A stretch of 52,553 nt of DNA, from positions 1-52,553 of the forward strand of contig CAZWMJ010000005.1 of NCBI GenBank assembly GCA_964635045.1, written 5' to 3'. Position 1 is the first letter of the stretch. Each line of letters begins with the position of its first letter. This document shows positions 17,210 through 47,954 of the stretch, one piece after another. Both the position numbers and the translations under genes were made by a program. This DNA comes from an uncultured Gammaproteobacteria bacterium. GTDB taxonomy: Bacteria; Patescibacteriota; Microgenomatia; Levybacterales; UBA12049. The notes beneath the pieces are model-generated. The model was not told where the DNA came from. It ran no database searches and worked only from the letters and a program-made list of their open reading frames with translations.

Positions 17210-17296
17210 GCGGACGTGGCGGAATGGTAGACGCGATAGGTTCAGGACCTATTGACCCAAAAGGTCATGGGGGTTCAACTCCCTTCGTCCGCACCA
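17210..17296 (+). tRNA. tRNA-Leu(CAG)
   Basis: GCGGACG acceptor, ATAGG-TTCAGGA-CCTAT, long variable arm, ends ACCA. Confidence 0.95.
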
Positions 17297-17317
17297 CTTC
17301 GACAGGTTTAGTGTAAG
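17295..17317 (+). repeat. tRNA-abutting repeat (CACTTCG...CAGTGTAA family), degenerate copy
   Basis: cacttcgacaggtttagtgtaag overlaps the CCA of tRNA-Leu(CAG). Confidence 0.6.
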
Positions 17318-17320
17318 CAA

Positions 17321-17403
17321 GGGTCGGTGGCGGAACTTGGTATACGCGCATGCTTGAGGTGCATGTCCCGCAAGGGGTGGAGGTTCAACTCCTCTCCGAC
17401 CCA
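17321..17403 (+). tRNA. tRNA-Leu(GAG)
   Basis: GGGTCGG acceptor, CATGC-TTGAGGT-GCATG, long variable arm. Confidence 0.95.
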
Positions 17404-17404
17404 C

Positions 17405-17486
17405 ATCTGCAAAGCAGATTTCTGATATTTCATGTTTACATTTTAAAAAGCTTAAAATTGAAAAGTAAAAATTCTGCTCTGCAGAA
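17405..17486 (+). mobile_element. 82-bp internally deleted (MITE-like) derivative of the GIY-YIG element at 23128-23436
   Basis: Ends ATCTGC-AAA-GCAGAT and TTCTGC-TCT-GCAGAA; interior 17425-17457 reads (I)FHVYILKSLK, a GIY-YIG N-terminus. Confidence 0.75.
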
Positions 17487-17561
17487 GGTCGATTAGCTCA
17501 ATGGTAGAGCGCTTCGTTTACATCGAAGATGTTGGGGGTTCGAGTCCCTCATCGACCACCA
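17487..17561 (+). tRNA. tRNA-Val(TAC)
   Basis: GGTCGAT acceptor, CTTCG-TTTACAT-CGAAG, ends ACCA. Confidence 0.96.
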
Positions 17562-17583
17562 TTTGTTGTATAATAAAGGTCCT

Positions 17584-17656
17584 GCCGAAGTTGCCAATGT
17601 GGTCAAGGCGTCCGCCTGAAGAGCGGATTATCGGTGTTCGATTCACCGCTTCGGCA
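17584..17656 (+). tRNA. tRNA-Phe(GAA)
   Basis: GCCGAAG acceptor, TCCGC-CTGAAGA-GCGGA, CGGTG-TTCGATT-CACCG; atypical GCC/GGC D-stem. Confidence 0.88.
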
Positions 17657-17684
17657 CCCGCCAAAAATTGAATATTTGGGCGGG
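17657..17684. repeat. spacer hairpin joining tRNA-Phe and tRNA-Gly
   Basis: cccgcc-aaaaattgaatatttg-ggcggg; starts right after the Phe discriminator and its last G is +1 of tRNA-Gly. Confidence 0.6.
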
Positions 17685-17755
17685 CGCGAGTAGTTCAGTG
17701 GTAGAACGTCTCGTTGCCAACGAGAAGGTCGCCGGTTCAATCCCGGTCTCGCGCT
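17684..17755 (+). tRNA. tRNA-Gly(GCC)
   Basis: GCGCGAG acceptor, TCTCG-TTGCCAA-CGAGA, U73. Confidence 0.96.
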
Positions 17756-17784
17756 CAAGGAGTCTGACTCGGCTAATTATTGCT

Positions 17785-18144
17785 ATGATATTTTGGGGAA
17801 AGGTAAGAAAACGAAGCGGCAGAGGCAAAACGCTTGGTTTCCCAACGGCAAATGTTAACTTGCGCAAGCCGATTTCTCAAGGAATTTATATTTCCCAAAC
17901 CAGAGTTGGGAAGAATTTGTATCATTCGGTTACTTTTATCGGCCAAGCCAAAACCTTCAACGAGACCAAGTTTCAGGCGGAGAGCTATATTTTCAACTTT
18001 AACAAATCAATCTACGGTCAATGGATATCTATGTATTTGATTAAAAAGATTAGAAATAATAAAAAATTTACCTCTAAAGAAGATCTTGTTAAAGAGATAA
18101 AAAAGGACATTACAAAAGCCAAAGCGTATTTTAGCCGATTGTAA
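17785..18144 (+). CDS. stand-alone riboflavin kinase (RibF C-terminal domain only)
   Basis: GRGKTLGFPTAN, QGIY, ESYIFNF and IRNNKKF motifs; start moved to ATG 17785. Confidence 0.88.
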   Translation: MIFWGKVRKRSGRGKTLGFPTANVNLRKPISQGIYISQTRVGKNLYHSVTFIGQAKTFNETKFQAESYIFNFNKSIYGQWISMYLIKKIRNNKKFTSKEDLVKEIKKDITKAKAYFSRL

Positions 18145-18279
18145 ATAACGGAAGTCGATTTTATCTTCCTAAACCACAGTAAAAAATAATCAAGGGCTGT
18201 TATACCAATTACTCCTGACCAGAGCTGCATTGATGTGCCCTTGAGTAAAACACAACAGACCGATTCCCTACCTGATAGT

Positions 18280-19038
18280 TTAGGGAAAAACAGCTCCCTG
18301 TGTTCTTCCATGATTTGTCGAGATGTCATATTGAACTTCTTGTTGTTTATATTTGTCTAGAATTTCGTTTCCCAGATTTATTACTCGCTGATTATGTTCA
18401 ACGCAATTATTAGAAAAAGGTAAACTGTAGAGAGCGTCCATGATTTCTTGAGTAGCCCCAGTTGCAATATCCTGATGCCCGCTTTCATGATTTTTTAAAG
18501 CCTCAATATACTTAGTCCATTTTGAATCCAAATTTGAATCGGGATTACCTGGTTTAATCCATTTAGGGAAGGTAAAAACTATATTTATTCTAACGAATGG
18601 TAGTTCATTACAAGGCTTCGACCAAATAATATCCCACTTTGTGTATGCATCATGTCTGCCATAGGAATCGGTAGGCCCAAGAGTATTCATTTGTTGTCTT
18701 AGATCGTTTTCCGTTAGTCCCTGAATATTATAATAATTTGTAACAATGTTTAGACCTATTTTTGGTTTACTAGACTTTACGGTATTTTCAGGTTGTTTAT
18801 CTTCTATAACTGTTTTTCGTGTGGGGGAAGGAGAGAGGGCCTCGTTATTATTGATTGTATCTTTATTTAAATCATTCGATATGCGAGTTTTTTGAGATAT
18901 ACTTATTGAATTTCCTTCGATATAGACGCGATAACCCAAAGACTGTAATCCTATGTATACTGTTATAAGTAAGATAGAGCAAATAAATAATATTCTTTTT
19001 CTCGTAATTTTTTTTAAAAATTTTTGTGACCCATCCAT
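18280..19038 (-). CDS. membrane-anchored DUF922-like putative Zn protease
   Basis: N-terminal TM; TFPKW, HESGH (HExxH) and YDISTNHGRTQG. Confidence 0.7.
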   Translation of the reverse strand: MDGSQKFLKKITRKRILFICSILLITVYIGLQSLGYRVYIEGNSISISQKTRISNDLNKDTINNNEALSPSPTRKTVIEDKQPENTVKSSKPKIGLNIVTNYYNIQGLTENDLRQQMNTLGPTDSYGRHDAYTKWDIIWSKPCNELPFVRINIVFTFPKWIKPGNPDSNLDSKWTKYIEALKNHESGHQDIATGATQEIMDALYSLPFSNNCVEHNQRVINLGNEILDKYKQQEVQYDISTNHGRTQGAVFP

Positions 19039-19065
19039 AATTTTCTTCTCTTACTAGCTGGCCGT

Positions 19066-20277
19066 TTATCGAAAATGTCGAATTTCTTGGATTTTGGTTT
19101 TATTAAGAGGCAGTTCAACAGTAAAGCTTGTGCCATTTTTTGGAATACTAGAAACTTTAATTCTCCCACCATGCATTTTAACTATCTCAGATGTTATAAA
19201 AAGGCCTACACCCAACCCTTTTTTATATTCCTTAGGTCCCGATGCATGTTTAAAAAGATCAAAGATAACTTTTTGTTCTTGAGTAGGAATTCCTATGCCC
19301 TCATCTTTAATGATAAATTTTCCCCAACCTCCGTTCATAAAAATCTTAATTTCAATTGGTTTGCTTTCCCCATATTTTATTGCATTCGAAATAAGATTTG
19401 TAATTACTTGCTCAATTTTTACCTTATCCCATCTTCCCACAACAGATGATTTTGCGTGGATTTTTATCTTGTATTTTTCTTTTTTTAACATCTCAGAAAA
19501 ACTCTGCTTTACCTGCTCTGTTACACTCACAAGATCAGTATCTTCAAGCTGTAATTTCATCCTTCCCGTTGAAATAAGAGAAACGTCAAGTAAATCGTTA
19601 ATTATTAATGATAACCATTTTATTTGTTGTTCCGAATTATTCAACACTTTCATTAATTTCTGAATTGAAAAATTTGCGAGCGAAACATTTTGTATGCTAT
19701 TTAACATGTCATGAAGTTTTAAAAGCATTATGGCAAGAGGTGTTTTTAGCTCGTGTGATACTATGGAAAGGAATTGGTCTCTTGCCTTGATGTTCTTACG
19801 GGCTATCTCATATTCATCATATAATTGAATAAAGGTACGTGCATATGTTTTCTCTTGTTTTTTTAATTTTGTTACTTCATTAGCTTCTTTAATTAAATTT
19901 ATTAGATAGCTTATAATAATTGCCCCACCTATGAAAAAGGCGAGTTGTATATACAAAGTTAAATCCAAATCAGTTTTGTAAAAAGCTCTGAAAAGAAAAT
20001 AGGCTTCAAGCGAAATAATCCCCATAGTCAATAAAGCAGAATATAAACCACCTAAAAAAGCGCTGAGGGCTATGATTATTAGAAAAAAAAGGTAAAAAGG
20101 TGTCTTATCGGAATAAGTTTTGAATAAATCAATTGCAAAATATATAAGTATTCCAAAAAGCGTGTTAGCTCCAAATATAAAAAAATACCTTACAAGTTGC
20201 CTTTTATATGATATATACCTTTTTGAGTAATTATATAGATTAAAAAATTTGTCTTTGAAATGTGGATCATTTTTCAT
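19066..20277 (-). CDS. sensor histidine kinase (DUF4118-like TM, HisKA, HATPase)
   Basis: SHELKTPL, NLISNAIKYG, DEGIGI and GLGVGLFI motifs. Confidence 0.93.
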   Translation of the reverse strand: MKNDPHFKDKFFNLYNYSKRYISYKRQLVRYFFIFGANTLFGILIYFAIDLFKTYSDKTPFYLFFLIIIALSAFLGGLYSALLTMGIISLEAYFLFRAFYKTDLDLTLYIQLAFFIGGAIIISYLINLIKEANEVTKLKKQEKTYARTFIQLYDEYEIARKNIKARDQFLSIVSHELKTPLAIMLLKLHDMLNSIQNVSLANFSIQKLMKVLNNSEQQIKWLSLIINDLLDVSLISTGRMKLQLEDTDLVSVTEQVKQSFSEMLKKEKYKIKIHAKSSVVGRWDKVKIEQVITNLISNAIKYGESKPIEIKIFMNGGWGKFIIKDEGIGIPTQEQKVIFDLFKHASGPKEYKKGLGVGLFITSEIVKMHGGRIKVSSIPKNGTSFTVELPLNKTKIQEIRHFR

Positions 20278-20357
20278 ATAGCATTACATTAGCAGACTTT
20301 GCCTGTGTAATTCAAGTGCGTTGGTGGTTAGTCCAGGTTAATGGTATAATTTAGGCA

Positions 20358-21296
20358 ATGCAAAAAACTATCCTTATTGTTGATGACGATGATGAGCTAA
20401 GGGACTTTTTAAAAAAAGTCTTGGTTGCTAATAACTTTAAAGTAGTAGAGGCATCTGATGGAGCGCAAGCTTTGGAAGCTGTAGAAAAATACTTTCCGGA
20501 TTTAGTACTTCTTGATTTCGGATTACCAAAAGTTCCAGGAGAAACTGTTTGTGTAAAAATCAAAAAAGACCACCCAAATATTATTGTAATTGCTTTAACT
20601 AAAAAAACCCAAAATTCTGATGTTGTGCATGGTTTACAAATAGGCGCTGATGATTATATAAGTAAACCTTTCGTTGCCGAGGAGTTAATAGCCCGAATAG
20701 ATGCAAGGTTTAAAAACAAAACTACCAATGCGCAAGTTCAATCAGGAGTAGAAGAATCATTGGTGGATGAAGCAGAGTCGGGCAAAATAATCTTTAGAGA
20801 AAGTGTTGCTTTAATTATTATCCGCTTAATCTTAACAGAAGCTCTCTTTGGATTTTCGATTCTCCTTTTTAATATTTTATACTCGTATATAAATTCATAC
20901 TTAAATAATAGCGACCTCTCTACTTTGTATTTTATAGTTTTAGGAGGAGCGTTTTTAATTAACCTTATGATGGTATCTTCGATTGCCTTAAAATGGGCAT
21001 CAGAATATACTGAGATATCCAAAGAAGGAGTTGTGAGACATACCGGCATTCTTCACAAAAAAGAACAAAAATACGCCTGCAATTTTGTTGAAGGAGCTAA
21101 GCTTAACCAATCATTCCTGGGATTACTTTTTAACTACGGGACAATTGAACTATATGATCCCGCTCTTAAAGAGCAAGTTTATTTATTAAACATAGCAAAT
21201 CCTAAAAAAAATAGTGAAAAAATACAAAAGATTGTTTCAAAGCCAAAAACTCAGCCTATGCCGTTTATAGTTGGAACGAACTCAAAAACTCAATAG
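20358..21296 (+). CDS. response-regulator receiver fused to two TM helices and a bacterial PH-like domain
   Basis: ILIVDDD, LVLLDFGLP and GADDYISKPF; C-terminal GVVRHTGILHKKE and QSFLGLLFNYGTIEL; no DNA-binding domain. Confidence 0.75.
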   Translation: MQKTILIVDDDDELRDFLKKVLVANNFKVVEASDGAQALEAVEKYFPDLVLLDFGLPKVPGETVCVKIKKDHPNIIVIALTKKTQNSDVVHGLQIGADDYISKPFVAEELIARIDARFKNKTTNAQVQSGVEESLVDEAESGKIIFRESVALIIIRLILTEALFGFSILLFNILYSYINSYLNNSDLSTLYFIVLGGAFLINLMMVSSIALKWASEYTEISKEGVVRHTGILHKKEQKYACNFVEGAKLNQSFLGLLFNYGTIELYDPALKEQVYLLNIANPKKNSEKIQKIVSKPKTQPMPFIVGTNSKTQ

Positions 21297-21337
21297 TTTA
21301 ATTAAAAAATCTTGTAGGACATAAACTTATTATATAG

Positions 21338-21372
21338 CCCTTCGACCCTTCGCTATGCTCCTCGCTCAGGGA
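21338..21372 (+). repeat. repeat-family copy
   Basis: cccttcgacccttcgctatgctcctcgctcaggga shares the TCGCTWTGCTCYTC core with 23514-23563 and 26871-26900. Confidence 0.55.
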
Positions 21373-21423
21373 GTTCGACTTTTAGATTTCAGAGATAATT
21401 TGACAAATATAGTGGTTATAACA

Positions 21424-21456
21424 GTGAGCGAACCCAATTTATTGGGTGAGTCGAAC
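21424..21456 (-). repeat. hairpin repeat at the 3' end of the disrupted tRNA-Gln
   Basis: Minus strand GTTCGACTCA-CCCAAT-AA-ATTGGG-TTCGCTCAC. Confidence 0.55.
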
Positions 21457-21458
21457 TG

Positions 21459-21565
21459 CTGGGAGACTAGGATTCGAACCTAGATAGTAAGATCCAAAGT
21501 CTTACGTCTCATCGCCTTTGGCGAGACCGCGCCGAAGGCGCTGGCTACCGTTAGATGACTCATGT
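21459..21565 (-). pseudogene. tRNA-Gln(TTG) pseudogene with 36-nt D-loop insertion and lost 5' acceptor strand
   Basis: TAAGA-CTTTGGA-TCTTA arm, CTAGG-TTCGAAT-CCTAG and TCTCCCA-G are intact; 5' ACATGAG cannot pair; insertion at 21509-21544. Confidence 0.75.
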
Positions 21566-21571
21566 CTAGAG

Positions 21572-21642
21572 CTGCCGGGCTTGGATTCGAACCAAAATAG
21601 ACGGATCCAAAGTCCGTCGTCCTACCATTAGACGACCCGGCA
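21572..21642 (-). tRNA. tRNA-Gln(TTG), intact
   Basis: TGCCGGG/CCCGGCA-G acceptor, GTCT-AATGGTA-GGAC, ACGGA-CTTTGGA-TCCGT. Confidence 0.95.
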
Positions 21643-21645
21643 GTT

Positions 21646-21888
21646 CTAGACACCAATCAATTTCTTAAATGCCTCTCCATGCTTATATTTCTTTATTTGT
21701 TGTTCTCTTTTAAAGGCTTCACTTTTTGTTTCAAATTCTTCTTCATAAACAATTTCAAATGGTCTATACGGCTTTGTCGATTTATTTTTACCTGCGTTAT
21801 GAGTTCTTAGTCTTTTATATTTATCCAATGTATGACTAATGTAATACCAATCATTAATCTTACTTCTTAGAATATAGGTAACATACAT
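21646..21888 (-). CDS. minimal GIY-YIG nuclease (80 aa, YhbQ/SLX1-like)
   Basis: MYVTYILRS..YYISHT..RLRTHN..STKPYRPF..EAFKREQQIK; the second motif has S instead of G. Confidence 0.9.
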   Translation of the reverse strand: MYVTYILRSKINDWYYISHTLDKYKRLRTHNAGKNKSTKPYRPFEIVYEEEFETKSEAFKREQQIKKYKHGEAFKKLIGV

Positions 21889-21892
21889 ATTT

Positions 21893-21967
21893 GATCCAAA
21901 GTCCGTTGTCTCATCGCCTTTGGCGAGACCGCGCCGAAGGCTCTGGCTACCGTTAGACGAACCGGCA
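21893..21967 (-). pseudogene. 5' half of tRNA-Gln(TTG) with the same 36-nt D-loop insertion, broken after the anticodon loop
   Basis: TGCCGGT-TC-GTCT-AACGGTAG-[21946-21911]-GAC-A-ACGGA-CTTTGGA-TC, then AAAT-ATG of the GIY-YIG gene. Confidence 0.8.
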
Positions 21968-22042
21968 ATCCTCATAATTATAGCACAGGAAGCGATTTTT
22001 TTGCGGTTGACCTTGGCTTCTAATTCAAATTATAATAATTGA

Positions 22043-22996
22043 ATGAAATATGGTTTGTTAATTCTGCTAAGCATTCTTTTAGGAATTTTAATGTGGCTTG
22101 TTTATCCGCTGTTAAAATCCGAAAAAATTACAATTATTTCATCTTTGCCCAATTTTCTGACTATGGCAAAAAATAATCAGGTGACAACTCTTGATTTGTG
22201 GCTTCCTCAGATAGATGATAGTAATAATGAAATAGGTTTTGCGCCGAATATCTCGGCCAGATCAGCTCTTGTTTACGATTTGACTACCAATCAGGTTATC
22301 TTTGCCAAAAATCCAAAGGACAAATTGCCTATCGCTTCTCTGACTAAAGTGATGACGGCAATTATTGCTTTGGAAAATAAAAGAAAGGACGATCGTTATC
22401 TGGTGGTAAAAGACAGTCTGGTTGGCGAAAACAGCATGGGACTTGCGCTTGGTGAAGTTTTGACAATTGAGGAGCTTTTATACGGACTGCTTCTTCCATC
22501 CGGAAACGACGCGTCGGAGGTACTGGCTGACAGTTTCCCTTCCGGCAGAGAGGGATTTATCAAAGCCATGAATAGCAAGGCAATGACCATGGGACTGCGA
22601 GATAGCAATTTTACAAATCCATCCGGTTTGGAAGGAGATGGTGATCAATACTCCACCGCATATGACTTGTTGGTGATAACCCGGTACGCCATCTCCAACT
22701 TCCCTTTATTTAATAAAATCGTTGCGACTGCGCAGTACAGTATTACCGAAACTCAAACACACAAGGAATATTACTTGCAGAATGAGACCAATCTTTTGAC
22801 AAGTTATCCGGGCGTTAAAGGAGTAAAAACCGGTTACACGCCGGAGGCCGGACTATGTTTAATTACTTACCTTGACTATAATGGACATCAAATTATTAGC
22901 GTTTTGTTGGGAAGCAGTAATCGAAGAGAGGAAATGAAAGAACTTTTGGATTACTCTCTCAAAAAGTTTGGAGTTAAGATTCTCGAAAGACCGTAA
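22043..22996 (+). CDS. D-alanyl-D-alanine carboxypeptidase (peptidase S11)
   Basis: ASLTK (SxxK), SGND (SxN) and KTG motifs; N-terminal TM. Confidence 0.93.
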   Translation: MKYGLLILLSILLGILMWLVYPLLKSEKITIISSLPNFLTMAKNNQVTTLDLWLPQIDDSNNEIGFAPNISARSALVYDLTTNQVIFAKNPKDKLPIASLTKVMTAIIALENKRKDDRYLVVKDSLVGENSMGLALGEVLTIEELLYGLLLPSGNDASEVLADSFPSGREGFIKAMNSKAMTMGLRDSNFTNPSGLEGDGDQYSTAYDLLVITRYAISNFPLFNKIVATAQYSITETQTHKEYYLQNETNLLTSYPGVKGVKTGYTPEAGLCLITYLDYNGHQIISVLLGSSNRREEMKELLDYSLKKFGVKILERP

Positions 22997-23043
22997 ACTT
23001 GAAGCAAAGTCTCATTTACGATACAATGGAAACTGTAAGTATC

Positions 23044-23126
23044 GGGCGAGTGGTGGAATGGTATACACGAAGGCCTTAAGAGCCTTTGACCGCAAGGTCG
23101 TGTGGGTTCGACTCCCTCCTCGCCCA
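23044..23126 (+). tRNA. tRNA-Leu(TAA)
   Basis: GGGCGAG acceptor, AAGGC-CTTAAGA-GCCTT, long variable arm; one T-stem mismatch. Confidence 0.92.
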
Positions 23127-23127
23127 C

Positions 23128-23436
23128 ACCTGCAGAGCAGGTTTCTTAAGACTTAATGTATAAGGTTTACTTATTAAAAAGTTTAGCTAAACCTGAAAAA
23201 AGTTATGTAGGTAGAACAATTAAACCGATAGTGGAACGTTTAAAAGAACATAATTCAGGTCAAGCGAGGTCAACTAAATCTTATATACCGTGGAAGCTGA
23301 TATATTATGAACAATTTTATTGTGAATTATGTTCAGATAAAAGAGAGGTTTTTCTGAAATCGGGAAAGGGTTTTAGATTAAGAAAAATTATATTAGAAAA
23401 CCAAGAGTTATTAAGATAGTGTTCTGCTTTGCAGAA
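23128..23436 (+). mobile_element. 309-bp GIY-YIG cassette with inverted hairpin termini, between tRNA-Leu and tRNA-Pro
   Basis: Left end ACCTGC-AGA-GCAGGT; right end GTTCTGC-TTT-GCAGAA(C), where the C is +1 of tRNA-Pro. Confidence 0.75.
23156..23419 (+). CDS. minimal GIY-YIG nuclease (87 aa)
   Basis: MYKVYLLKS..SYVGRT..RLKEHN..STKSYIPWKLIYYE..KREVFLKSG. Confidence 0.92.
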   Translation: MYKVYLLKSLAKPEKSYVGRTIKPIVERLKEHNSGQARSTKSYIPWKLIYYEQFYCELCSDKREVFLKSGKGFRLRKIILENQELLR

Positions 23437-23510
23437 CGGGGAGTAGCTCAGTTGGCTAGAGCGCGCGGTTTGGGACCGTGAGGTCGGAGGTTCAAGTCCT
23501 CTCTCCCCGA
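23437..23510 (+). tRNA. tRNA-Pro(TGG)
   Basis: CGGGGAG acceptor, CGCGG-TTTGGGA-CCGTG. Confidence 0.95.
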
Positions 23511-23513
23511 CAA

Positions 23514-23563
23514 GTTTACACTGAGGAGCAAAGCCAAGTCAGACTTGGCAAAGCGACGAAGTG
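23514..23563 (-). repeat. tRNA-abutting repeat with nested GCCAAGTCAGACTTGGC palindrome
   Basis: gtttacactgaggagcaaa-gccaagtcagacttggc-aaagcgacgaagt|G, where G is +1 of tRNA-Gly. Confidence 0.75.
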
Positions 23564-23633
23564 CGGGTGTAGTTCAATGGTAGAACACGACTTTTCCAAA
23601 GTCGATACGAGGGTTCGATTCCCTTCACCCGCT
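23563..23633 (+). tRNA. tRNA-Gly(TCC)
   Basis: GCGGGTG acceptor, CGACT-TTTCCAA-AGTCG, U73. Confidence 0.95.
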
Positions 23634-23771
23634 CACAAGTTCCGAGTGGGCGGGGCGGTGCGAAGTACCGCCCATGGGTTTAGGCCTTCAGAACTCACCT
23701 TTTTGTCGGAGAGTATGAGGTTCGGGCCAAGCATTTTGTGTTTGTTGAAACTTGAGGATTTGCTCCTCCTT

Positions 23772-25499
23772 CTATCCAAAAGTAAATGCAAAAATCTCTG
23801 TTTTGTTATCCTCAAATTCGAGTCTTAAAATATGTCTCCCTGCAGTTGGTAAATTAATCAATTTATATAACTTATCTGAGTCAATCGTAACGATACCCTC
23901 TCTGTTATCCACTCCGAAATTTTGCAGTTTGTCATCAAGATAGACCTTTACTTTTGCTGGAGTACCTTTTGTACGCATGACTAGAAATACTTCCTTGGAT
24001 TCAAAGTTAAGAAGTAATTTTGCGCCTTTTTGTGGATTGGCATATTCTTCCATGACATTCCAATTGCCTGCGTAAGCAACTTGATTGCTCCCCAAACTGG
24101 TGGGAGATGTATAGGTACCAAGAGCATCTTTCTTAAGATGCTCAAGAGAAGCAAAGTTGTCAATACGTCCATATCCCAAATATATCTCAGGAGTTTTTGT
24201 TTGTACTTGATAGGTTGGATTATTTATCTCGAATGTTACATCTTTGGCACCAGTTTCTTTGAGTAAATCCTGAATTACTTCTTCGGTTTCATCATAAGCA
24301 CCTTCACCAAAATGGGTGTAGCGGATATACCCTTCCTTATCTATAATGTATTTAGCAGGCCAGTAGCGGTTGTTGTAAGCTTTCCAGGTAGCAAAATCAT
24401 TATCCTGGACAATTGGGTAGGGAAGCTTGAAGTCTTTGATTGCCTGTGCTAGATTTTTCTCGCTCTTTTCAAACTCGAATTCCGGCGAATGGACCCCAAT
24501 AATTATCAGCCCCTTGTCATTGTATGTTTTCCACCATTTTCGAAGATACGGCATAGTTCTTTGGCAATTGATGCAGCTATATGTCCAGAAATCGATGATC
24601 ACAACTTTACCTTTTAGTTGCTTAAGAGTGAGTGGGTCACTGTTAAACCACGCTCCCCCAGGAATAAGTTCTGGCGCAACTGGACCTTTCGGTAATGTCA
24701 TATCTGAGATAGGTTTACCAATTTTTGTTTTGTCTATAGGTTTTTGATTTATTTTCTCAAGCTCTTTTTTGACTGATATATTATCTTCAAATTTGGTTAA
24801 GCCAACTCCATATTGTGGGAAAGTGTTTAAAACAAATGTTTGAAACTTCCTATCAATATTAAAAAATATTCCAATGGCAGTTAGGATCATTAATATTCCG
24901 AACAGTTTTTGGATATTCCCAAGATTTGAAAGCAACCAGGGAACACGTCGAAGTGCATTTTGTCCACCAAGTATTATCAAAAACATCGGAATTGCAGTAC
25001 CCAGAGAATATGCAAGAGTAATAAGAAAGGCATCAAAAGTGACAGAGCCGGTAATTGCCAAAGATATAACAGATGCGAGGATTGGGCCGACACACGGTGT
25101 CCAGAGAAGTCCCACAGAAAAACCTATCAGTAATCCTCCGCCAAAGCCAGTTCTCTTTTGGCTACTTGGCATAAATCCTGCTAATTTGGAAAACAACCTC
25201 TCAACAACCAACTGAAACTGTGGAATAAGAAGTGATGCACCAAACCCCGCTATAACCACTACTGAAACAAGTCTCAGCATATCTGCTGAAATACCACTGA
25301 GGCGAACTATGGTTGAAAGGAAGAGAGTGAAAAAAGTAAAGCTTAAGATAAAGCCAATAACCACACCCATGGGTCGTGATTTTCCAATATTTTGACCTCC
25401 GATACTTGACGTAAGAATAATTGGGAGTATTGGTAGTATGCAAGGAGAAAGTATTGTTATAACTCCTGCTAGAAATGCAAATGCAATTAGTAATATCAT
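23772..25499 (-). CDS. dipZ: DipZ-type protein: CcdA/DsbD TM domain, thioredoxin-like domain and C-terminal domain
   Basis: SPCILPILP, WTPCVGPIL, FWTYSCINC and IGVHSPEF motifs. Confidence 0.9.
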   Translation of the reverse strand: MILLIAFAFLAGVITILSPCILPILPIILTSSIGGQNIGKSRPMGVVIGFILSFTFFTLFLSTIVRLSGISADMLRLVSVVVIAGFGASLLIPQFQLVVERLFSKLAGFMPSSQKRTGFGGGLLIGFSVGLLWTPCVGPILASVISLAITGSVTFDAFLITLAYSLGTAIPMFLIILGGQNALRRVPWLLSNLGNIQKLFGILMILTAIGIFFNIDRKFQTFVLNTFPQYGVGLTKFEDNISVKKELEKINQKPIDKTKIGKPISDMTLPKGPVAPELIPGGAWFNSDPLTLKQLKGKVVIIDFWTYSCINCQRTMPYLRKWWKTYNDKGLIIIGVHSPEFEFEKSEKNLAQAIKDFKLPYPIVQDNDFATWKAYNNRYWPAKYIIDKEGYIRYTHFGEGAYDETEEVIQDLLKETGAKDVTFEINNPTYQVQTKTPEIYLGYGRIDNFASLEHLKKDALGTYTSPTSLGSNQVAYAGNWNVMEEYANPQKGAKLLLNFESKEVFLVMRTKGTPAKVKVYLDDKLQNFGVDNREGIVTIDSDKLYKLINLPTAGRHILRLEFEDNKTEIFAFTFG

Positions 25500-25523
25500 A
25501 TTATTGTTAATTAACCTCTGATA

Positions 25524-25559
25524 CTAGTTTTTGTTTGCCCATATAAGGACAAAAACTAG
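25524..25559. other. intergenic hairpin with 11-bp arms
   Basis: CTAGTTTTTGT...ACAAAAACTAG between the thioredoxin gene and dipZ; no long U-tract on the minus strand. Confidence 0.45.
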
Positions 25560-25568
25560 CACCACAGA

Positions 25569-26066
25569 CTACTTAATATTGGCGAGTAACTCATCAGTTT
25601 TACCACCGTTCCATTTGGTTACTTCTTTTCCAAGGCCATCTATCTGGACGAATGTGTGCTGATAAGTGATTGCGTATTTTTTGGCAAGCTCCTTTTCTTC
25701 CTGATCAGTGTCAGTATCATTATAATTGACTCTAATAACTGTTACATCAGCTGGGATCTTACTCGAGTTCGCCGTAAGGTCGGCATCAGCTGGTTTACAG
25801 ATTGGGCACCAATTAGCGTAAAAATATAAGACCCTGCGCTTATTAGCTGATCCGTCAAGTACCCCCTTTGAGTACTCAACATAGCGTGAACTATCTTTTT
25901 TCATCATGACATCATCCTGCTTTGTAGTATTTCCCTTTTCCATGGTAGCTTTTTCCTGCTCCATTTTTACTTTTTCAGCCTGTTGAGAATTCTGATTTGC
26001 TATAAACAACCCTCCCACAACCAGAACTAAAACGACAACGCCTGCAATTATGATTCCTTTATTCAT
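25569..26066 (-). CDS. membrane-anchored thioredoxin-family protein
   Basis: YFYANWCPIC (CxxC) and ITYQHTFV; N-terminal TM. Confidence 0.9.
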   Translation of the reverse strand: MNKGIIIAGVVVLVLVVGGLFIANQNSQQAEKVKMEQEKATMEKGNTTKQDDVMMKKDSSRYVEYSKGVLDGSANKRRVLYFYANWCPICKPADADLTANSSKIPADVTVIRVNYNDTDTDQEEKELAKKYAITYQHTFVQIDGLGKEVTKWNGGKTDELLANIK

Positions 26067-26090
26067 TTATTTTTCACCCCCCCTCTCATA

Positions 26091-26456
26091 TTAATGTTTG
26101 ATATGCCCATAAATCAGTCCGAGTATCTTAGCTAATAAACCAATACAAAGCGAAATAACAAGAAAAGGATCAACCTCTCCTTTGAAACTTTGAAAAATAA
26201 CACCGAAGGTAAGTGTTGCAATAACAGCGAAATATGCAAACCGAGACGCAATGAATTTATGGAATTGTTCTCTTTCATCACCAGGTGTCTCTTTCCATAA
26301 AGCGGCGGCGAAAATAATAAATAGAACAACCAAGAACGGAACCATAAATGGATGGAGGGACTGTGGCATTAGGAGGTCAAGCGGATTTATAAAAAAGACT
26401 AGCAGTCCAATAAGGGCAAGCGAGATGATTATTTCACCGATAAATTTATTCTTCAT
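26091..26456 (-). CDS. small membrane protein (4 TM)
   Basis: Hydrophobic segments, DEREQFH motif, directly after the XRE regulator; start moved to ATG 26456. Confidence 0.7.
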   Translation of the reverse strand: MKNKFIGEIIISLALIGLLVFFINPLDLLMPQSLHPFMVPFLVVLFIIFAAALWKETPGDEREQFHKFIASRFAYFAVIATLTFGVIFQSFKGEVDPFLVISLCIGLLAKILGLIYGHIKH

Positions 26457-26658
26457 ATTTATATATAAACACTTCCTCGACAGGTTTTTTAAAAGACCTG
26501 GCAATTTTCATACCAAGCAACAGTGAAGGGATATAATTTCCCTTTTCGATTGCAATGACTGTCTGCCTTGAAACACCTAGAGCTTTTGCGAATTCTTCCT
26601 GGGTAACATCTTTTTCTTTTCGCAGCTCTAAAACTCTGTTATTAACATGTTCTCTCAT
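26446..26658 (-). CDS. XRE-family HTH transcriptional regulator
   Basis: TQEEFAKALGVSRQTVIAIEKGNYIPSL; start moved to ATG 26658. Confidence 0.92.
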   Translation of the reverse strand: MREHVNNRVLELRKEKDVTQEEFAKALGVSRQTVIAIEKGNYIPSLLLGMKIARSFKKPVEEVFIYKYEE

Positions 26659-26667
26659 AATTCCGTA

Positions 26668-26732
26668 AATGTCAAGTAGATTTGACATTATTTTAGAAGG
26701 CGAGAGTGGCTTTGTCAAGTAGGATTTACATT
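26668..26732 (-). promoter_or_regulatory. promoter with two palindromic operators
   Basis: TTGACA (26718-26713), 17 nt, TAAAAT (26695-26690); operators AATGTCAA-GTAGAT-TTGACATT (26668-26689) and TGTCAA-GTAGGA-TTTACA (26713-26730). Confidence 0.75.
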
Positions 26733-26870
26733 TTAACACCCGGTTTTGATTAGCTTATAATTATTTATAAAACTCCGGCAAATTTTCCCGCTCCGGCTTG
26801 AACGGATAAACGGGGCTACTCAGCATAAAATATGTTGTAAAGTCTCATAATTTGGTATAATTGAATATAT

Positions 26871-26900
26871 GCGCTTGCGCTGAAGAGCAAAGCGATGAAG
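26871..26900 (-). repeat. tRNA-abutting repeat, empty allele
   Basis: Minus strand CTTCATCGCTTTGCTCTTCAGCGCAAGCGC; inverted partner at 26976-26997. Confidence 0.7.
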
Positions 26901-26972
26901 CGCCCATAGCTCAACGGATAGAGCAAGTCGGTTCTAACGATTAGGTTGGGGGTTCGAATCCCTCTGGGCGCG
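26900..26972 (+). tRNA. tRNA-Arg(TCT)
   Basis: GCGCCCA acceptor, AGTCG-GTTCTAA-CGATT; G at position 32. Confidence 0.9.
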
Positions 26973-27073
26973 CCTCACATTCGTTCGGCGCAAGCGCTTT
27001 ACATCTCTTTGTTTCATTGATATACTTTGTATTGGAAATTGGTAGTATTGGTATTTATTGGTAGTATTTTTTT

Positions 27074-27146
27074 GGTGGTTGTAGCTCAATGGTAGAGCGC
27101 AAGCTTGTGGAGCTTGATGTTGCGGGTTCGATCCCCGTCAGCCACC
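27074..27146 (+). tRNA. tRNA-His(GTG)
   Basis: G-1:C73 pair, GTGGTTG acceptor, CAAGC-TTGTGGA-GCTTG. Confidence 0.96.
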
Positions 27147-27212
27147 CATAAAGCAGAACAAGTTCGCTCATGGCTACAGCCTCACATGTAAAAACTACAT
27201 TCATTAGGATCC

Positions 27213-27316
27213 ATGCGAAGAGAAAAACAATTAAAAAGATGGTCGCGTGCTAAAAAAAAGCGTTGATTGCAGGAAACATAAATGAGCTTAAAAAATTAAG
27301 TAAAAGTAAACATTAG
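27213..27316 (+). pseudogene. frameshifted C-terminal remnant of a minimal GIY-YIG (UPF0213-like) gene
   Basis: MRREKQLKRWSRAKK, frameshift in the A-run at 27252-27259, then ALIAGNINELKKLSKSKH*. Confidence 0.7.
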
Positions 27317-27445
27317 CACGAGAGATATTCCTTAAAAGTGGCTACAATAGAAAACAGTTTAAGAAAATACTGAAGAATACAATAGAAATTTTAGGAACTC
27401 ATCTTAATATATATTTCTAAAGAAAAAGTATGATAGACTAAGTTT

Positions 27446-28459: not shown

Positions 28460-28461
28460 AA

Positions 28462-28686
28462 TTAACGATAAATTGCAATTTTACTGTACCTGGAAAGAGA
28501 TTCAATTGTTTCCTCCTGAGCTTGTTCTACCCTGTCATTTACTTGTTCTACCCTTTTATTTACTAACTCTACCTTCATTTCAACTGTGTCTAGTTGTTGT
28601 TTAACTCCTCGCAAATCCACTTTAATTGGCTTCAGTTTTTTCTCTATCAAATCACCAATTTGACCTAAAAGTTTTTTATCATCCAT
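28462..28686 (-). CDS. small coiled-coil hypothetical protein
   Basis: Heptad-like VELVNKRVEQVNDRVEQ; TAGTAT 6 nt before the ATG. Confidence 0.55.
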   Translation of the reverse strand: MDDKKLLGQIGDLIEKKLKPIKVDLRGVKQQLDTVEMKVELVNKRVEQVNDRVEQAQEETIESLSRYSKIAIYR

Positions 28687-30087: not shown

Positions 30088-30094
30088 AGATAAA

Positions 30095-33347: not shown

Positions 33348-33422
33348 ATTCATTTGAGGAAATGAACGTTATTTAGTATACTATAAGAAACAAGTTTAGA
33401 GCAAGTGTATTTTAGATAAAGA

Positions 33423-35133: not shown

Positions 35134-35148
35134 AATAAGATCTCTCTT

Positions 35149-39563: not shown

Positions 39564-39653
39564 TCTATTGTACTACAAAAAATATCGTAATTAATACAGG
39601 TTTTGTAACCTTTAAGGTTGTAAATAAATTCTCATTATGTTATAAAGTGATTT

Positions 39654-40640: not shown

Positions 40641-40658
40641 GGAATTTCCGATACCTCA

Positions 40659-42206: not shown

Positions 42207-42279
42207 AAATCAAGTGAATTTTAGCACTTGATAAATCAAATAGCAATAAATTGAGATGTAAAACTATATATGTTAGAAA

Positions 42280-45156: not shown

Positions 45157-45217
45157 GCCGAATTTTTATTTTACCAATTTCTTTGCGAATTTACCATAGT
45201 CGTAATATAATAGTTGA

Positions 45218-46453
45218 ATGCCAATTAGAATTGCCATGATTTCCTATCACTCCTGTCCTCTGGCATCGGTTGAGGGTAAGGAAACAGGAGGACTAAATGT
45301 TTATGTCCTCCAGTTATCCAAAGAACTAGCCAAACTAGGCTTTATGGTGGACATGTTTACCAGATGCCAGGACGAAAAACAGCCAAAAGAGGTTAAGTTG
45401 AGCGAAAATCTTCGGCTTTTTCATTTGGAAAGCGGACCGACAAAGCCTATTCCCAAAAAAAGTTTAATGCAATATCTGCCTGAGTTCATCGACAGCTTTA
45501 CAAAGTTTGTTGAAGATAATGGCATTCAATATGACATCTACCATTGTCACTATTATCTATCCGGGCTGGTCGGACTTAACATAAATAAACAACGTAAGGA
45601 GAAAATACCTATTATTATCACTCTTCACACACTGGCATTAATGAAAAATCTGGTGGCCAGAGACGAGATGGAGAAAGAAGATAAGTTTCGGATTGAGGCG
45701 GAATTAATGCTGGTTGCTCAGGCTGATAGAATTATCTGCTCAAGTGAAAGCGGCGGAGAATATCTGTCGCATCTTTATAGCGCGCCATCCTCAAAAATTA
45801 CCATTGTTACTCCCGGAGTTGATACTAAACTTTTTCGGCCCATCGACCGCCTCAGAGCCAAAAAACATATCAAAGCCCTCCCAAAGCATAAAATAATTAT
45901 GTTTGTCGGTCGAATTGAAGCCATTAAAGGACTCGATGTACTTTTGTATGCCATGAAAATGCTTATCGCCAAACTTAAGAACATGCGCCTTTGTCTGTGG
46001 ATTGTAGGAGGAGATATTTCGCAAAAACGCAGTCTTTGGTCAAGGGAGCTGATAAAGCTTGAACAACTGCGCGCGCTTTTAAATATTACAACGGAAGTAA
46101 AATTTGTGGGAAGAAAACCCCAAAAAGAATTACCATTTTATTATAACGCCGCCGAGTTGGTGGTGATGCCTTCACACTATGAATCATTTGGCTTGGCCGC
46201 TTTGGAGGCCATGGCCTGCGACAAACCCGTCATTACTACCGATGTCGCCGGCGTTTCGGGTGTTTTTGATAAAAAACATCAGGATTTGATTATCTCTTCC
46301 AATAATCCCCTTTCTCTGGCACAACAAATGGAGAAACTTCTTACCAGGAAAAGTCAGATATCAGGCGATCTTCGCCGGGCCATATCTGACCTGACATGGG
46401 AAAATGCGGCCCGCAAAGTCGCCAAAGTTTATGAAGACATTTTATCTGTTTAG
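45218..46453 (+). CDS. GT4 glycosyltransferase, MshA-like
   Basis: HSCPL..TGGLNVY, HCHYYLSG, VGRIEAIKG and YESFGLAALEAMAC motifs. Confidence 0.85.
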   Translation: MPIRIAMISYHSCPLASVEGKETGGLNVYVLQLSKELAKLGFMVDMFTRCQDEKQPKEVKLSENLRLFHLESGPTKPIPKKSLMQYLPEFIDSFTKFVEDNGIQYDIYHCHYYLSGLVGLNINKQRKEKIPIIITLHTLALMKNLVARDEMEKEDKFRIEAELMLVAQADRIICSSESGGEYLSHLYSAPSSKITIVTPGVDTKLFRPIDRLRAKKHIKALPKHKIIMFVGRIEAIKGLDVLLYAMKMLIAKLKNMRLCLWIVGGDISQKRSLWSRELIKLEQLRALLNITTEVKFVGRKPQKELPFYYNAAELVVMPSHYESFGLAALEAMACDKPVITTDVAGVSGVFDKKHQDLIISSNNPLSLAQQMEKLLTRKSQISGDLRRAISDLTWENAARKVAKVYEDILSV

Positions 46454-46928
46454 ACATGCCGAAACCAAAAAAGAAGGAGAGCATTACACAAAGGAGGATA
46501 TCATCAGCGCGCAAATTCTGAAAGAGGGTGTCCCACCCATAAAGCGCATGGCCAAGTTTCTTAAAAACTGTCCTATTGACGCGTGGTATGTTTCCGAATA
46601 TCTTCGCTGCCAGCAAACAGCGGATATTATATCCAGTATTACAAAAACAAAATTTACTAAAGATAAGCGCTTAGGCGAGTTTCACCCAAGATATCTTCCG
46701 GAACCCTTTTACCGCTTCAGAAAACGCATAGCCGATTTTTTAAAGATGATTCTTAAAAGTAATCACCATGATATAGTTATTTGCACTCACGGAGCGGTTG
46801 TCTCGGGATTTAAACATTTTTTGACAGGAAAGGAATTTAAACGAAACAATATATATGATGATTTAGATACCGGAGTTATAACTATTGTAAAAAATAACAG
46901 TGTTGAAGTAATAAATTTTTCCAACTGA
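46431..46928 (+). CDS. histidine phosphatase (phosphoglycerate mutase superfamily)
   Basis: RHAE, SEYLRCQQTA, RLGE and THG motifs; start moved to ATG 46431. Confidence 0.85.
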   Translation: MKTFYLFRHAETKKEGEHYTKEDIISAQILKEGVPPIKRMAKFLKNCPIDAWYVSEYLRCQQTADIISSITKTKFTKDKRLGEFHPRYLPEPFYRFRKRIADFLKMILKSNHHDIVICTHGAVVSGFKHFLTGKEFKRNNIYDDLDTGVITIVKNNSVEVINFSN

Positions 46929-46932
46929 ATTG

Positions 46933-47006
46933 TACCGCGTGCGGGAGTCGAACCCGCGATTTTCGGGATGAAAACCCGACGTCCTAGGCCACTAGACGAA
47001 CGCGGC
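46933..47006 (-). tRNA. tRNA-Glu(TTC)
   Basis: GCCGCGT acceptor, TCGGG-TTTTCAT-CCCGA. Confidence 0.94.
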
Positions 47007-47040
47007 AAAGTCAGACTTTGCCAGCCAAGTTTGACTTGGC
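47004..47040. repeat. tandem palindromes at the 5' end of tRNA-Glu
   Basis: GGCAAAGTC-A-GACTTTGCC (47004-47022, overlapping tRNA +1 to +3) and GCCAAGT-TTG-ACTTGGC (47024-47040); same family as 23533-23549. Confidence 0.75.
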
Positions 47041-47142
47041 GGCCTGCTAACAAGTATTATAGCAAATTGTGAAATAGATTAAAATAACACAGTACCACCA
47101 TGTGGCACTGTGTCCGAAATAAATTCAAGAACTAAATCTAAT

Positions 47143-47805
47143 TTATTTCAGCTTTTTCTTTAAGGCCTCAACCACTTCTTTCGCCGAACCCTGTCCTCCC
47201 AAGCCGAATGCTATTCCTCCGGCTATTGCCACCATGGCCACAAATCCGGTAAATAGTATTCTGATCAGGTCACTGGCTACGCCAAGCTGATTAAGTACGG
47301 CTAAAAAGACAAATATCGTTATAGCCCAACGCGCAACAGATGCTACCGTTTGAGCTGTTTCAGACGATATGCCTCGACTTGACGCCAAAATTACGTCATG
47401 AGAAAGCCGTGAGAAAACCAGTCCGACAAGACCTATGATTGCCGCCACAAACACGTTTGGCAGGTAAATTAAAAATGTATTTAATACCGTTGTGATTTGA
47501 GGTAATCCCCACACGTCTGCTGTTGGTATTAAAAATAGCACGATGATAAACCACCTGACTATTTCCGCCAATATGTTTGACCAAACAAATTCTTCTTTGG
47601 CTTCCGGCACCCCGTATTTGTGCAAAAACGCCTCTATTTTCAAACTTTTCAAAAGTTCCAAAACAAGGCCTTTGAGTATGGAAGCGACTATTATACCTAC
47701 AAGAAGAATTATAACTCCGGCCAAAAACTTTGGGACAAAACCTGCCACCGCGCCTAGACCGCTATTGAGGGATACTATTATGCTTTGACCGATATCAGGT
47801 ACCAC
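47143..47805 (-). CDS. conserved TM-helix-repeat membrane protein (MscS-associated/CmpX-like)
   Basis: FVPKFLAG, YLPNVFVAA and VLNQLGVA repeats; GTG 47805 preceded by GGAGGTG. Confidence 0.75.
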   Translation of the reverse strand: MVPDIGQSIIVSLNSGLGAVAGFVPKFLAGVIILLVGIIVASILKGLVLELLKSLKIEAFLHKYGVPEAKEEFVWSNILAEIVRWFIIVLFLIPTADVWGLPQITTVLNTFLIYLPNVFVAAIIGLVGLVFSRLSHDVILASSRGISSETAQTVASVARWAITIFVFLAVLNQLGVASDLIRILFTGFVAMVAIAGGIAFGLGGQGSAKEVVEALKKKLK

Positions 47806-47932
47806 TTTCTTTCTCACCTCCCTTCATCCGCCGAGATTGGTGATACGAAGGCGGTATACACATATCTATAATTAGTGTAGAATGCTATTTTCATCTTGTC
47901 AAGTGGGAATAATCACTGTATAATTTAAAAGG

Positions 47933-47954
47933 GTTTACCCTGAACGAAGTGAAG
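47933..47954 (-). repeat. tRNA-abutting repeat, minimal copy
   Basis: gtttaccctgaacgaagtgaa|G, where G is +1 of tRNA-Lys. Confidence 0.7.

Follow-up and report, generated by a model that had tools for sequence, protein, structure and literature searches.

Hairpin Repeats at the tRNA Gene Ends of a Levybacteria Genome Probably Belong to Small GIY-YIG Cassettes

Introduction

A stretch of 52,553 nucleotides from contig CAZWMJ010000005.1 (assembly GCA_964635045.1), called the window below, raises the question why short hairpin repeats of one family stand directly at the ends of several tRNA genes. The window is cellular and not phage DNA, as judged from long housekeeping-type open reading frames (ORFs) on both strands and 16 tRNA genes, and its nearest proteins are those of Candidatus Levybacteria and other Microgenomates of the candidate phyla radiation (CPR, Patescibacteria), whose bacteria are ultra-small. 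Three small GIY-YIG genes or gene remains are found among the tRNA genes (23156-23419, 21646-21888 and a remnant at 27148-27300). Our answer, to which we assign a probability of roughly 60%, is that the repeats are the end hairpins of GIY-YIG cassettes that occupy tRNA junctions, together with ORF-less deletion derivatives and orphan ends of such cassettes.

Comparison loci from other genomes are designated by L-numbers (e.g., L070, L086, L192). A metagenome scan with the 5' end of tRNA-Phe yielded 55 related loci with an orthologous Leu-Leu-Val-Phe-Gly cluster. Homologues of the GIY-YIG protein termed type A below were collected by protein similarity alone in six lookups (L192 included) from Gottesman-, Davies-, Roizmanbacteria and others. 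Several locus sets were picked by tRNA pattern or motif; the protein-selected sample is the unbiased part. The hairpin modules were compared by pattern, comparative and pair-count tests instead of a covariance model, because their variable stem-loop makes one single model uninformative.

A Hairpin Module at tRNA Gene Ends

Four clean copies of the repeat share the signature GYTTRCNCYGA, namely those in the leaders of tRNA-Gly(tcc), tRNA-Arg(tct) and tRNA-Lys(ttt) and an inverted one after tRNA-Arg(tct). The core family proposed in the first-pass annotation of this DNA thus holds, and the tRNA coordinates and other positions given there were all correct. The signature occurs five times in the window compared with 0.60 expected, none of 100 shuffled sequences reached five, and four of the five matches abut tRNA ends. 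A second pattern, CTGARGAGC..GCGAYGAAG, is matched twice with none expected. Related loci (405 kb) contain 35 matches outside tRNA genes, about 24 of which precede a tRNA boundary by 8-39 nt and have the predicted orientation. The 35-mers beside tRNA ends are also more structured than the background (mean -5.9 versus -3.6 kcal/mol; Mann-Whitney p = 2e-5).

The module consists, in this order, of a tag GYTTRC-N, a helix base CYGA...GARG enclosing a variable stem-loop, and a closing helix. In the helix base G.A and A.G are opposed, giving tandem G.A pairs on one strand. The stem-loop has either a short form of 15 nt (CUGAAC-GAA-GUGAAG) or a long form of 21 nt (CUGAGGAGC-AAA-GCGACGAAG). The GARG end always points at the tRNA, so that direct copies stand before +1 and inverted copies after the 3' end. 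This adjacency is precise to the nucleotide, direct copies ending at -2 to +1 and inverted copies beginning 1-3 nt past the discriminator. The outer strand of the closing helix is provided by the first 2-3 nt of the adjoining tRNA (the last 2-3 for inverted copies), and the earlier suggestion that the hairpins pair with +1 proved right, as nucleotides +1 to +3 are indeed used. The two innermost closing pairs with the terminal tRNA nucleotides are formed in 29 of 29 and 29 of 29 modules from the window and its relatives, in the combinations CA/UG, CC/GG, CG/CG, GC/GC, UA/UG and UC/GA. The helix base covaries as well, from CUGA/GAAG to CCGA/GAGG and to UCGA/GAGA, and in the long form from G5-C17 to A5-U17.

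The copy in the leader of tRNA-Gly(tcc) (23514-23562, plus strand) carries the tag GTTTACA at 23514-23520. In its core (23521-23561) the 21-mer CTGAGGAGCAAAGCGACGAAG is interrupted in the loop, and the closing pairs ACA/UGC use tRNA positions +1 and +2. In L086 a 29-nt module that is identical stands before tRNA-Gly(gcc). The module in the leader of tRNA-Arg(tct) (26870-26900, plus strand) has the tag GCTTGCG (26873-26879) and the core CTGAAGAGCAAAGCGATGAAG (26880-26900), the last G of which is tRNA +1; it is placed between TATAAT (26856-26861) plus 8 nt and the tRNA, and shows the compensatory change of G5-C17 to A5-U17. After the same tRNA an inverted short-form module (26973-26997, minus strand; GCGCTTGCG-CCGAAC-GAA-UGUGAGG) overlaps the 2 nt following the discriminator, and here CUGA/GAAG is changed to CCGA/GAGG, again in a compensatory manner. 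The short-form module in the leader of tRNA-Lys(ttt) (47931-47954, plus strand; GGGTTTACC-CUGAAC-GAA-GUGAAG) likewise ends with a G that is +1, and follows a promoter TTGTCA (47896-47901)-17 nt-TATAAT (47919-47924) plus 7 nt.

Could these copies resemble each other merely by chance, as unrelated hairpins that happen to flank tRNA genes? A structure-only descriptor (NNGA-hairpin-GANN plus closing pairs) was not enriched in the window, with 92 matches versus 81 ± 9 in shuffled sequences, and the 12-mer CTGAACGAAGTG with two mismatches was found there at chance level. Two of the copies listed in the first-pass annotation (17297-17320, 27161-27175) are weak. On the other side, the sequence signatures lie far above expectation, identical 29-nt modules are found in different genomes, and the architecture recurs in independently sampled loci. 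Chance resemblance is refuted for the four core copies, and as an explanation of the likeness we regard it as extremely improbable. A tag GTTTACA together with a CGAAG end is also contained in the anticodon arm of tRNA-Val (17513-17529; CTTCG-TTTACAT-CGAAG) and causes false tag matches in relatives; this likeness is probably a coincidence.

Several known structures were considered for the module and rejected. Searches with the Rfam covariance models at the modules gave no family except tRNA, even at E <= 10. A hammerhead-like reading of CUGARGAGC..GAAG was discarded on this ground and because the core is devoid of A14 and GAAA. For a kink-turn or box C-D motif the tandem G.A pairs would need a 3-nt bulge, which is absent, as they are flanked by regular pairs on both sides; an sR14 match reached 14 bits at E = 6. 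A long-range pairing of left and right cassette ends was dropped since the variable tag position pairs with local tRNA nucleotides instead.

Nested insertions were observed in long-form loops. One of them, 20 nt long (23534-23553), is located in the leader of tRNA-Gly(tcc); it carries the palindrome GCCAAGTCAGACTTGGC (23533-23549), and the 6-nt direct repeat GCAAAG lies on either side of it. L134, L140 and L177 have members of this palindrome family in tRNA spacers, and the window has further ones at 47004-47040. The right end of L182/L183 is interrupted as well, and L182 has a second short-form module within the first.

GIY-YIG Cassettes with Cognate Ends

In Microgenomates the type-A cassette measures 320-450 nt, contains one GIY-YIG gene of about 85 codons on the tRNA strand and fills the gap between two tRNA genes exactly. 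Its ends are two modules in inverted orientation with the tags inward and the GARG ends outward, giving the layout tRNA 3' end, CTTCG..hairpin..TCAG-N-GTAAAC, ORF, GYTTRC-N-CTGA..hairpin..GAAG, +1 of the next tRNA. Full cassettes of this kind are present in L070 (Arg-tcg|Lys-ctt), L086 (Leu-taa|Pro), and L152 and L167 (Phe|Gly). In the protein-selected sample all six loci lie between two tRNA genes of the same strand, mostly Arg-tcg|Lys-ctt, and five of the six have modules at both ends, the exception being L187-L189. Within the 55-locus set all 19 tblastn matches to GIY-YIG proteins were located within 157 nt of a tRNA gene and on its strand.

The window itself retains parts of such cassettes. 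After tRNA-His a decayed type-A gene (27148-27300, plus strand) consists only of a frameshifted C-terminus (..REKQLKRWSRAKKK..) with the remnant AAGTTCGCTCATGGC at 27161-27175. The tRNA-Lys(ttt) leader (AGGGTTTACCCTGAACGAAGTGAAG|GGCCGGTAGCTCA) matches the right end (AGGGTTTACCCTGAGGAGTAAAACGACGAAG|GGCCGGTAGCTCA) of an Arg-tcg|GIY-YIG|Lys-ctt cassette from Daviesbacteria (L184), and the same mechanosensitive (MS) channel gene lies upstream in both loci; thus, this copy corresponds to the right end of a cassette.

Type-B cassettes differ in the protein motif (..FLKSGxGFRxRK compared with ..REREIKGWRREKK in type A) and in their ends, which are CTGC-NNN-GCAG hairpins; in the window these occur on the plus strand at 17405-17419, 17472-17486, 23128-23142 and 23421-23437. 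One cassette with an uninterrupted ORF fills the Leu(taa)|Pro(tgg) junction (23128-23437, plus strand; ORF 23156-23419, PF01541 with E = 2e-9). It is bounded by ACCTGCAGAGCAGGT (23128-23142) and GTTCTGCTTTGCAGAAC (23421-23437), and the last C of the second hairpin is +1 of tRNA-Pro. L192 and L193 show the same arrangement and hairpins, the L192 protein being 90% identical. At the Leu(gag)|Val(tac) junction an internally deleted cassette (17405-17486, plus strand) has kept both hairpins and the first codons of the ORF (ATGTTTACA..). Compared with the full 342-nt cassette of L139, which has the same two hairpins at the same junction, it lacks about 260 nt. The gene is enclosed by CTGC hairpins in each of the four complete type-B cassettes (window, L139, L192, L193).

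A third type, C, is represented on the minus strand at 21646-21967. Its 80-aa ORF (21646-21888; PF01541, E = 6e-14) ends 3 nt before a full-length tRNA-Gln (21571-21642, found by ARAGORN and Rfam) and is preceded by a copy of the 5' half of tRNA-Gln with a 39-nt insert in the D-loop (21893-21967). In general, type-C genes stand 3-10 nt upstream of a tRNA and after a 5' half copy of the same tRNA.

Two GIY-YIG genes with intact frame lie at tRNA genes of the window, of which the type-B gene is bounded by hairpins at both ends. The ORFs encode 80-99 aa, and PF01541 is the sole family on record for them; for some few, more distant matches to the type-B query PF10544 is given as a second family. 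Each GIY-YIG subtype has its own cognate end hairpins, type A the modules (nine of ten) and type B the CTGC hairpins (four of four). The first-pass annotation had suggested footprints of an element targeted to tRNA boundaries, plausibly by the co-located GIY-YIG proteins. The comparative data support the footprints and their link to the GIY-YIG genes; targeting by the protein itself is doubtful, as it has only about 85 aa and no DNA-binding domain and as the hairpin core also spreads in other phyla with no GIY-YIG gene close by.

Presence, Absence and Exchange at Junctions

Junction spacers in the 55-locus set range from 0-3 nt up to more than 3 kb, and junctions filled by a cassette in one genome measure only 0-12 nt in other relatives. 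The Phe|Gly junction has 2-12 nt in 18 related loci, whereas L152 and L167 have a GIY-YIG gene there and a length of 355-368 nt; in L086 the spacer of 57 nt holds just two modules back to back. One and the same site can have different occupants: at the Leu-taa|Pro junction L086 has a type-A cassette and L070 a solo module, and the window, L192 and L193 have type B. In L192, tRNA-Gly(tcc) and tRNA-Arg(tct) are present without the modules they carry in the window.

The promoter geometry differs as well. Where the window has a module, TATAAT and 7-8 nt precede it and +1 comes after it; relatives have no module there, and about 9-14 nt separate their TATAAT from +1. A TATAAT only about 9-14 nt before +1 is seen at many tRNAs of the lineage (window, L125-L179), so that their leaders would comprise a few nucleotides only.

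The blocks Leu-taa/GIY-B/Pro and peptidase-S11/Gln/GIY stand in inverted relative order in window 21571-23511 and L192 9889-11689, and the breakpoints of this rearrangement coincide with tRNA and cassette boundaries.

Half-tRNA duplications and pseudo-tRNAs accompany cassettes in several loci. In the window, a Gln-like pseudo-tRNA (21458-21570, minus strand) bears the same 39-nt insert as the half copy at the type-C gene and has no 5' acceptor strand. Its Rfam tRNA score of 26.6 bits, for a partial match, lies below the gathering threshold of 29, and its identity to 21893-21960 is 91% over 69 nt. The insert forms a double hairpin in the D-loop of both 5' copies of tRNA-Gln, and the half copy upstream of the type-C ORF inflates the predicted N-terminus of this ORF. 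Next to the pseudo-tRNA an ORF-less inverted hairpin pair of the GTGAGCGA..GTCGAAC subfamily occupies 21338-21457, with arms at 21338-21379 and 21425-21457, the second of which abuts the 3' end of the pseudo-tRNA. This subfamily also follows tRNA-Gln in L168. Of the related cores claimed previously, this inverted pair is real, although it is a sister subfamily; the third, 27161-27175, is a weak scrap only.

In the Val|Phe spacer of L143, L170, L171 and L175, and also in L162/L169, L140 and L141, the 5' portion of the downstream tRNA is duplicated over 22 nt to about two-thirds of the gene. These copies adjoin hairpin pairs without an ORF or inserts, a pattern that suggests repeated breakage and repair within tRNA genes.

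A Core Common to Many Phyla

The long-form core has a much wider distribution than the cassettes. In a scan with one genome per species, the exact 21-mer CTGAGGAGCAAAGCGACGAAG was found at no fewer than 100 loci of many phyla among the matches listed, with hosts in Lachnospiraceae, Deltaproteobacteria, Chloroflexi, Acidobacteria, Omnitrophica, Pseudomonas, Patescibacteria and others. Over 45 distinct contexts three flanking pairs outside the search pattern covary strongly (94.7% of cells pair versus 27-38% with a slid partner); pair 6-28 is CG in 22, UA in 13 and GC in 3 of them. An inverted partner arm with complementary outer ends GTCATY...RATGAC lies 3-79 nt downstream in 37 of 84 copies. 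The usual form of this cross-phylum repeat (L005-L124) is tGTCATY-core-RATCT with an inverted partner arm. In a metagenome-assembled genome of Deltaproteobacteria (nzgw171) at least 12 identical copies of the 21-mer are contained in a larger repeat at contig ends. Hardly any of the cross-phylum copies lies close to a tRNA, they have no recurrent ORF family as a neighbour, and no GIY-YIG gene was found near the 21-mer outside CPR. Rfam holds no family for this 21-mer, and no description was found under its sequence string in the searchable literature; a literature search on sequence strings and on GIY-YIG, UPF0213 and tRNA brought up nothing relevant except a review on DNA mini-hairpins.

These data bear on the main rival explanation. 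According to it the modules are independent repeats similar to repetitive extragenic palindromic (REP) sequences and their inverted doublets (REPINs), copied in trans, for example, by a Y1 transposase of the REP-associated tyrosine transposase (RAYT) type; they would have settled at tRNA junctions as the few tolerated, or preferred, non-coding places of a compact genome, with the GIY-YIG gene as a co-resident. The distribution over many phyla favours this, and so do the inverted doublets with complementary outer ends, the lack of a recurrent ORF or, outside CPR, of a nearby GIY-YIG gene, and a Pseudomonas copy (L102) with GTAG just 5' of the hairpin as in classical REPs. Orphan single modules between promoter and +1 in the window and the occurrence of the same AT-rich hairpin at different junctions in L168 and L192 are also in line with it. 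The subtype-specific ends argue against it, because modules at both ends of nine out of ten type-A cassettes and a different hairpin in four out of four of type B are not expected from chance co-residence. Furthermore, the orientation is opposite to that of REPIN doublets, the tags being directed inward toward the ORF, the Levybacteria tag is GYTTRC and not GTAG, and no RAYT or Y1 transposase gene was noticed among the annotated ORFs of the window, that is, within 52 kb of the genome only. We consider this explanation unlikely, albeit one to be taken seriously.

A Possible Role in tRNA Processing

Alternatively, the hairpins might be RNA elements of tRNA precursors that are useful to the host. 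Their stem-loops, paired with +1 to +3 of the tRNA or with its 3' end, would set, delay or protect processing by RNase P and RNase Z, and helices of leader and trailer, as around tRNA-Arg(tct), would act like the processing stems of rRNA. The invariable formation of the first two closing pairs in several compensating combinations fits this idea, as does a perfect 10-nt complement between leader and trailer of tRNA-Arg(tct) (GCGCUUGCGC/GCGCAAGCGC). Modules are also located in the transcribed leader just after promoters, and different hairpin sequences take the same positions. The trailer copies fold to the same hairpin geometry on both strands, the G.A strand being slightly more stable (-10.5 versus -9.1 kcal/mol), for which reason RNA and DNA roles are not separable here. 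However, close relatives differ in whether a given tRNA has a module, spacers of 0-12 nt or short leaders suffice in most relatives, and a purely host-beneficial processing signal is unlikely when modules come and go in this way. A pairing of 2-3 bp cannot compete with the 7-bp acceptor stem, and decayed copies and nested insertions look like neutral debris. Since the trailer copies are reverse complements of the leader copies, their RNA presents U.C instead of G.A and therefore a different surface; mirror-image copies after 3' ends point to more than a leader RNA signal. Altogether, a host function of this kind appears distinctly improbable to us.

Another conceivable role of the hairpins is that of a guide. 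The last 2-3 nt of tag and hairpin end would select the insertion point by pairing with the terminal nucleotides of a tRNA gene where the DNA is single-stranded or extruded, and the composite hairpin would be the substrate of the minimal GIY-YIG protein, acting as a structure-specific nuclease. We regard this as quite doubtful. If it were true, it would define a previously unknown class of GIY-YIG-driven mobile elements that are targeted by base pairing and specialised for tRNA gene ends.

Further Features of the Window

A degenerate inverted module (17297-17320, minus strand; GCTTACA-CTAA..CGAAG) follows tRNA-Leu(cag). As annotated before, its CACTTCG supplies the "CA" of an apparent CCA, although the copy itself is decayed; at the orthologous junction L168 has a better copy, GCTTGCA-CTGA-hairpin. 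CCA is encoded in only three of the 16 tRNA genes of the window. Two palindromes of the CCAAGT/CAAAGT type occupy the space from the promoter to +1 of tRNA-Glu(ttc) (47004-47040), and the first overlaps +1 to +3. Together with the nested palindrome at 23533-23549 these two (47004-47022, 47024-47040) form the CCAAGT-YWR-ACTTGG hairpins, which are distinct from the tagged modules. The "other palindromes" previously seen at tRNA +1 hence exist and belong to separate families, CTGC-NNN-GCAG and CCAAGT-YWR-ACTTGG. The Phe|Gly(gcc) junction is filled by a hairpin (17657-17684, plus strand; -12 to -16 kcal/mol) that spans the 3' end of tRNA-Phe and +1 of tRNA-Gly.

tRNA-Lys(ctt) and tRNA-Arg(tcg) are divergent in the window, and their 75-nt spacer (33348-33422) contains the hairpin GTTCATTT-CCTC-AAATGAAT, which ends at Lys +1; in five other lineages the two genes are co-oriented with a type-A cassette between them. 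A block of DipZ, thioredoxin and helix-turn-helix (HTH) genes (23772-26739) was tried as a synteny anchor by means of DipZ and rejected, as the neighbourhood is not conserved, has few tRNAs and forms a variable island. The proteins of this block are 82-87% identical in L001-L004 and stand there in quite different neighbourhoods with resolvases, HNH genes and restriction-modification genes, so the block behaves like a mobile island. A search of a plasmid collection gave weak matches only, with no annotated feature beneath.

Discussion

We infer from the sequences how the cassettes may move and whether they have an RNA role. They would be selfish genes resembling those of homing endonucleases, which spread into tRNA junctions by DNA break and repair; the half-tRNA duplications beside them fit such a course. 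The cassettes may be part of the tRNA transcripts, from which RNase Z would free their 5' end and RNase P their 3' end. Hairpins at the very ends of the released mRNA would keep the insert from disturbing the folding of the tRNAs.

Several observations weigh against this interpretation. Because loci were in part picked via tRNA pattern or motif, the adjacency counts are inflated. The module end at 21338 abuts no tRNA, and L187-L189 is a type-A locus without modules. The abundance of the exact 21-nt core in unrelated phyla, with neither GIY-YIG gene nor tRNA nearby, indicates that the hairpin can spread independently of GIY-YIG genes. The GIY-YIG proteins comprise the catalytic domain only (about 80-90 aa) and are devoid of a DNA-binding module, which makes it doubtful that they could home to a specific sequence on their own. 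A comparison of filled and empty Phe|Gly junctions revealed no target-site duplication. Finally, the arrangement Arg-tcg|GIY-YIG|Lys-ctt is conserved across several Microgenomates lineages, and this deep conservation may point to vertical inheritance of a domesticated gene instead of active mobility.

If the repeats are the ends of GIY-YIG cassettes, a coherent class of very small selfish cassettes, each with one nuclease gene of about 85 codons and two hairpins, exists at tRNA junctions of CPR bacteria, apparently expressed by riding on tRNA transcription and processing. Such cassettes would reshape tRNA operons via variable spacers, half-tRNA duplications, pseudo-tRNAs and rearrangement breakpoints. 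Through the core CTGAGGAGCAAAGCGACGAAG, exact across many bacterial phyla, their ends are linked to a wider repeat. In practical terms, the cassettes account for spurious ORFs and odd tRNA flanks in metagenome-assembled genomes of CPR bacteria and offer testable substrates for uncharacterised minimal GIY-YIG proteins.

Comparison with Known Systems

Like miniature inverted-repeat transposable elements (MITEs) and insertion sequences (IS), the cassettes have terminal inverted repeats: tag and helix base are inverted at both ends, and the tops of the stem-loops usually differ. No DDE transposase was found in the cassettes, and a direct repeat (6 nt) is found only around the nested palindrome at 23534-23553. 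Ends of the IS200/IS605 type were ruled out, since the hairpins are mutually inverted and not on the same strand, and no TnpA was seen.

On a physical level the cores resemble the extraordinarily stable mini-hairpins of the d(GCGAAGC)/d(GCGAAAGC) type (PMC13037366), which are a physical motif and not a genetic element. Both hold GC-NNN-GC closed by sheared G.A, here as GAGC-AAA-GCGA and, in partner arms, as GAGCGAAGCGA. The part of that review considered here describes these hairpins outside any tRNA or cassette context.

REP and REPIN elements are said to be mobilised by RAYT transposases. They have in common with the modules imperfect palindromes of 20-40 nt, a short tag 5' of the hairpin foot, inverted doublets and many copies, and the 21-nt core is literally common to the window modules and to REPIN-like doublets in many phyla. 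The window copies are repeated imperfect-palindrome hairpins as well. The differences lie in the tag, which is GYTTRC and not GTAG (a GTAG foot occurs only in the Pseudomonas copy), in the tie of the modules to tRNA ends, and in the direction of the module doublets, which is outward when they enclose an ORF and inward when they enclose a tRNA.

The segB gene of phage T4 is reportedly a free-standing GIY-YIG homing endonuclease gene within a tRNA cluster. The cassettes are similar in that a GIY-YIG gene lies between tRNA genes on their strand and is present or absent at the same conserved site. They thus share with homing endonuclease genes the GIY-YIG domain and the presence/absence pattern, without the separate DNA-binding domain. 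Seg proteins have more than 200 aa including DNA-binding domains, whereas the cassette proteins are putative nucleases with a catalytic core of about 85 aa only; Seg genes are devoid of inverted hairpin ends, and the hosts of the cassettes are cellular CPR genomes.

Finally, GC-rich PstI palindromes reportedly flank tRNA genes in Neurospora mitochondria, and in the tRNA-punctuation model tRNAs are said to mark the processing sites of mitochondrial transcripts. As in Neurospora, short palindromes directly flank tRNA genes, and some of those in the window contain CTGCAG; as in mitochondrial punctuation, genes between tRNAs could be released by tRNA processing. In contrast to the Neurospora palindromes, those described here lie on a bacterial chromosome, their sequences are unrelated, and the link to GIY-YIG genes is specific to the present case.

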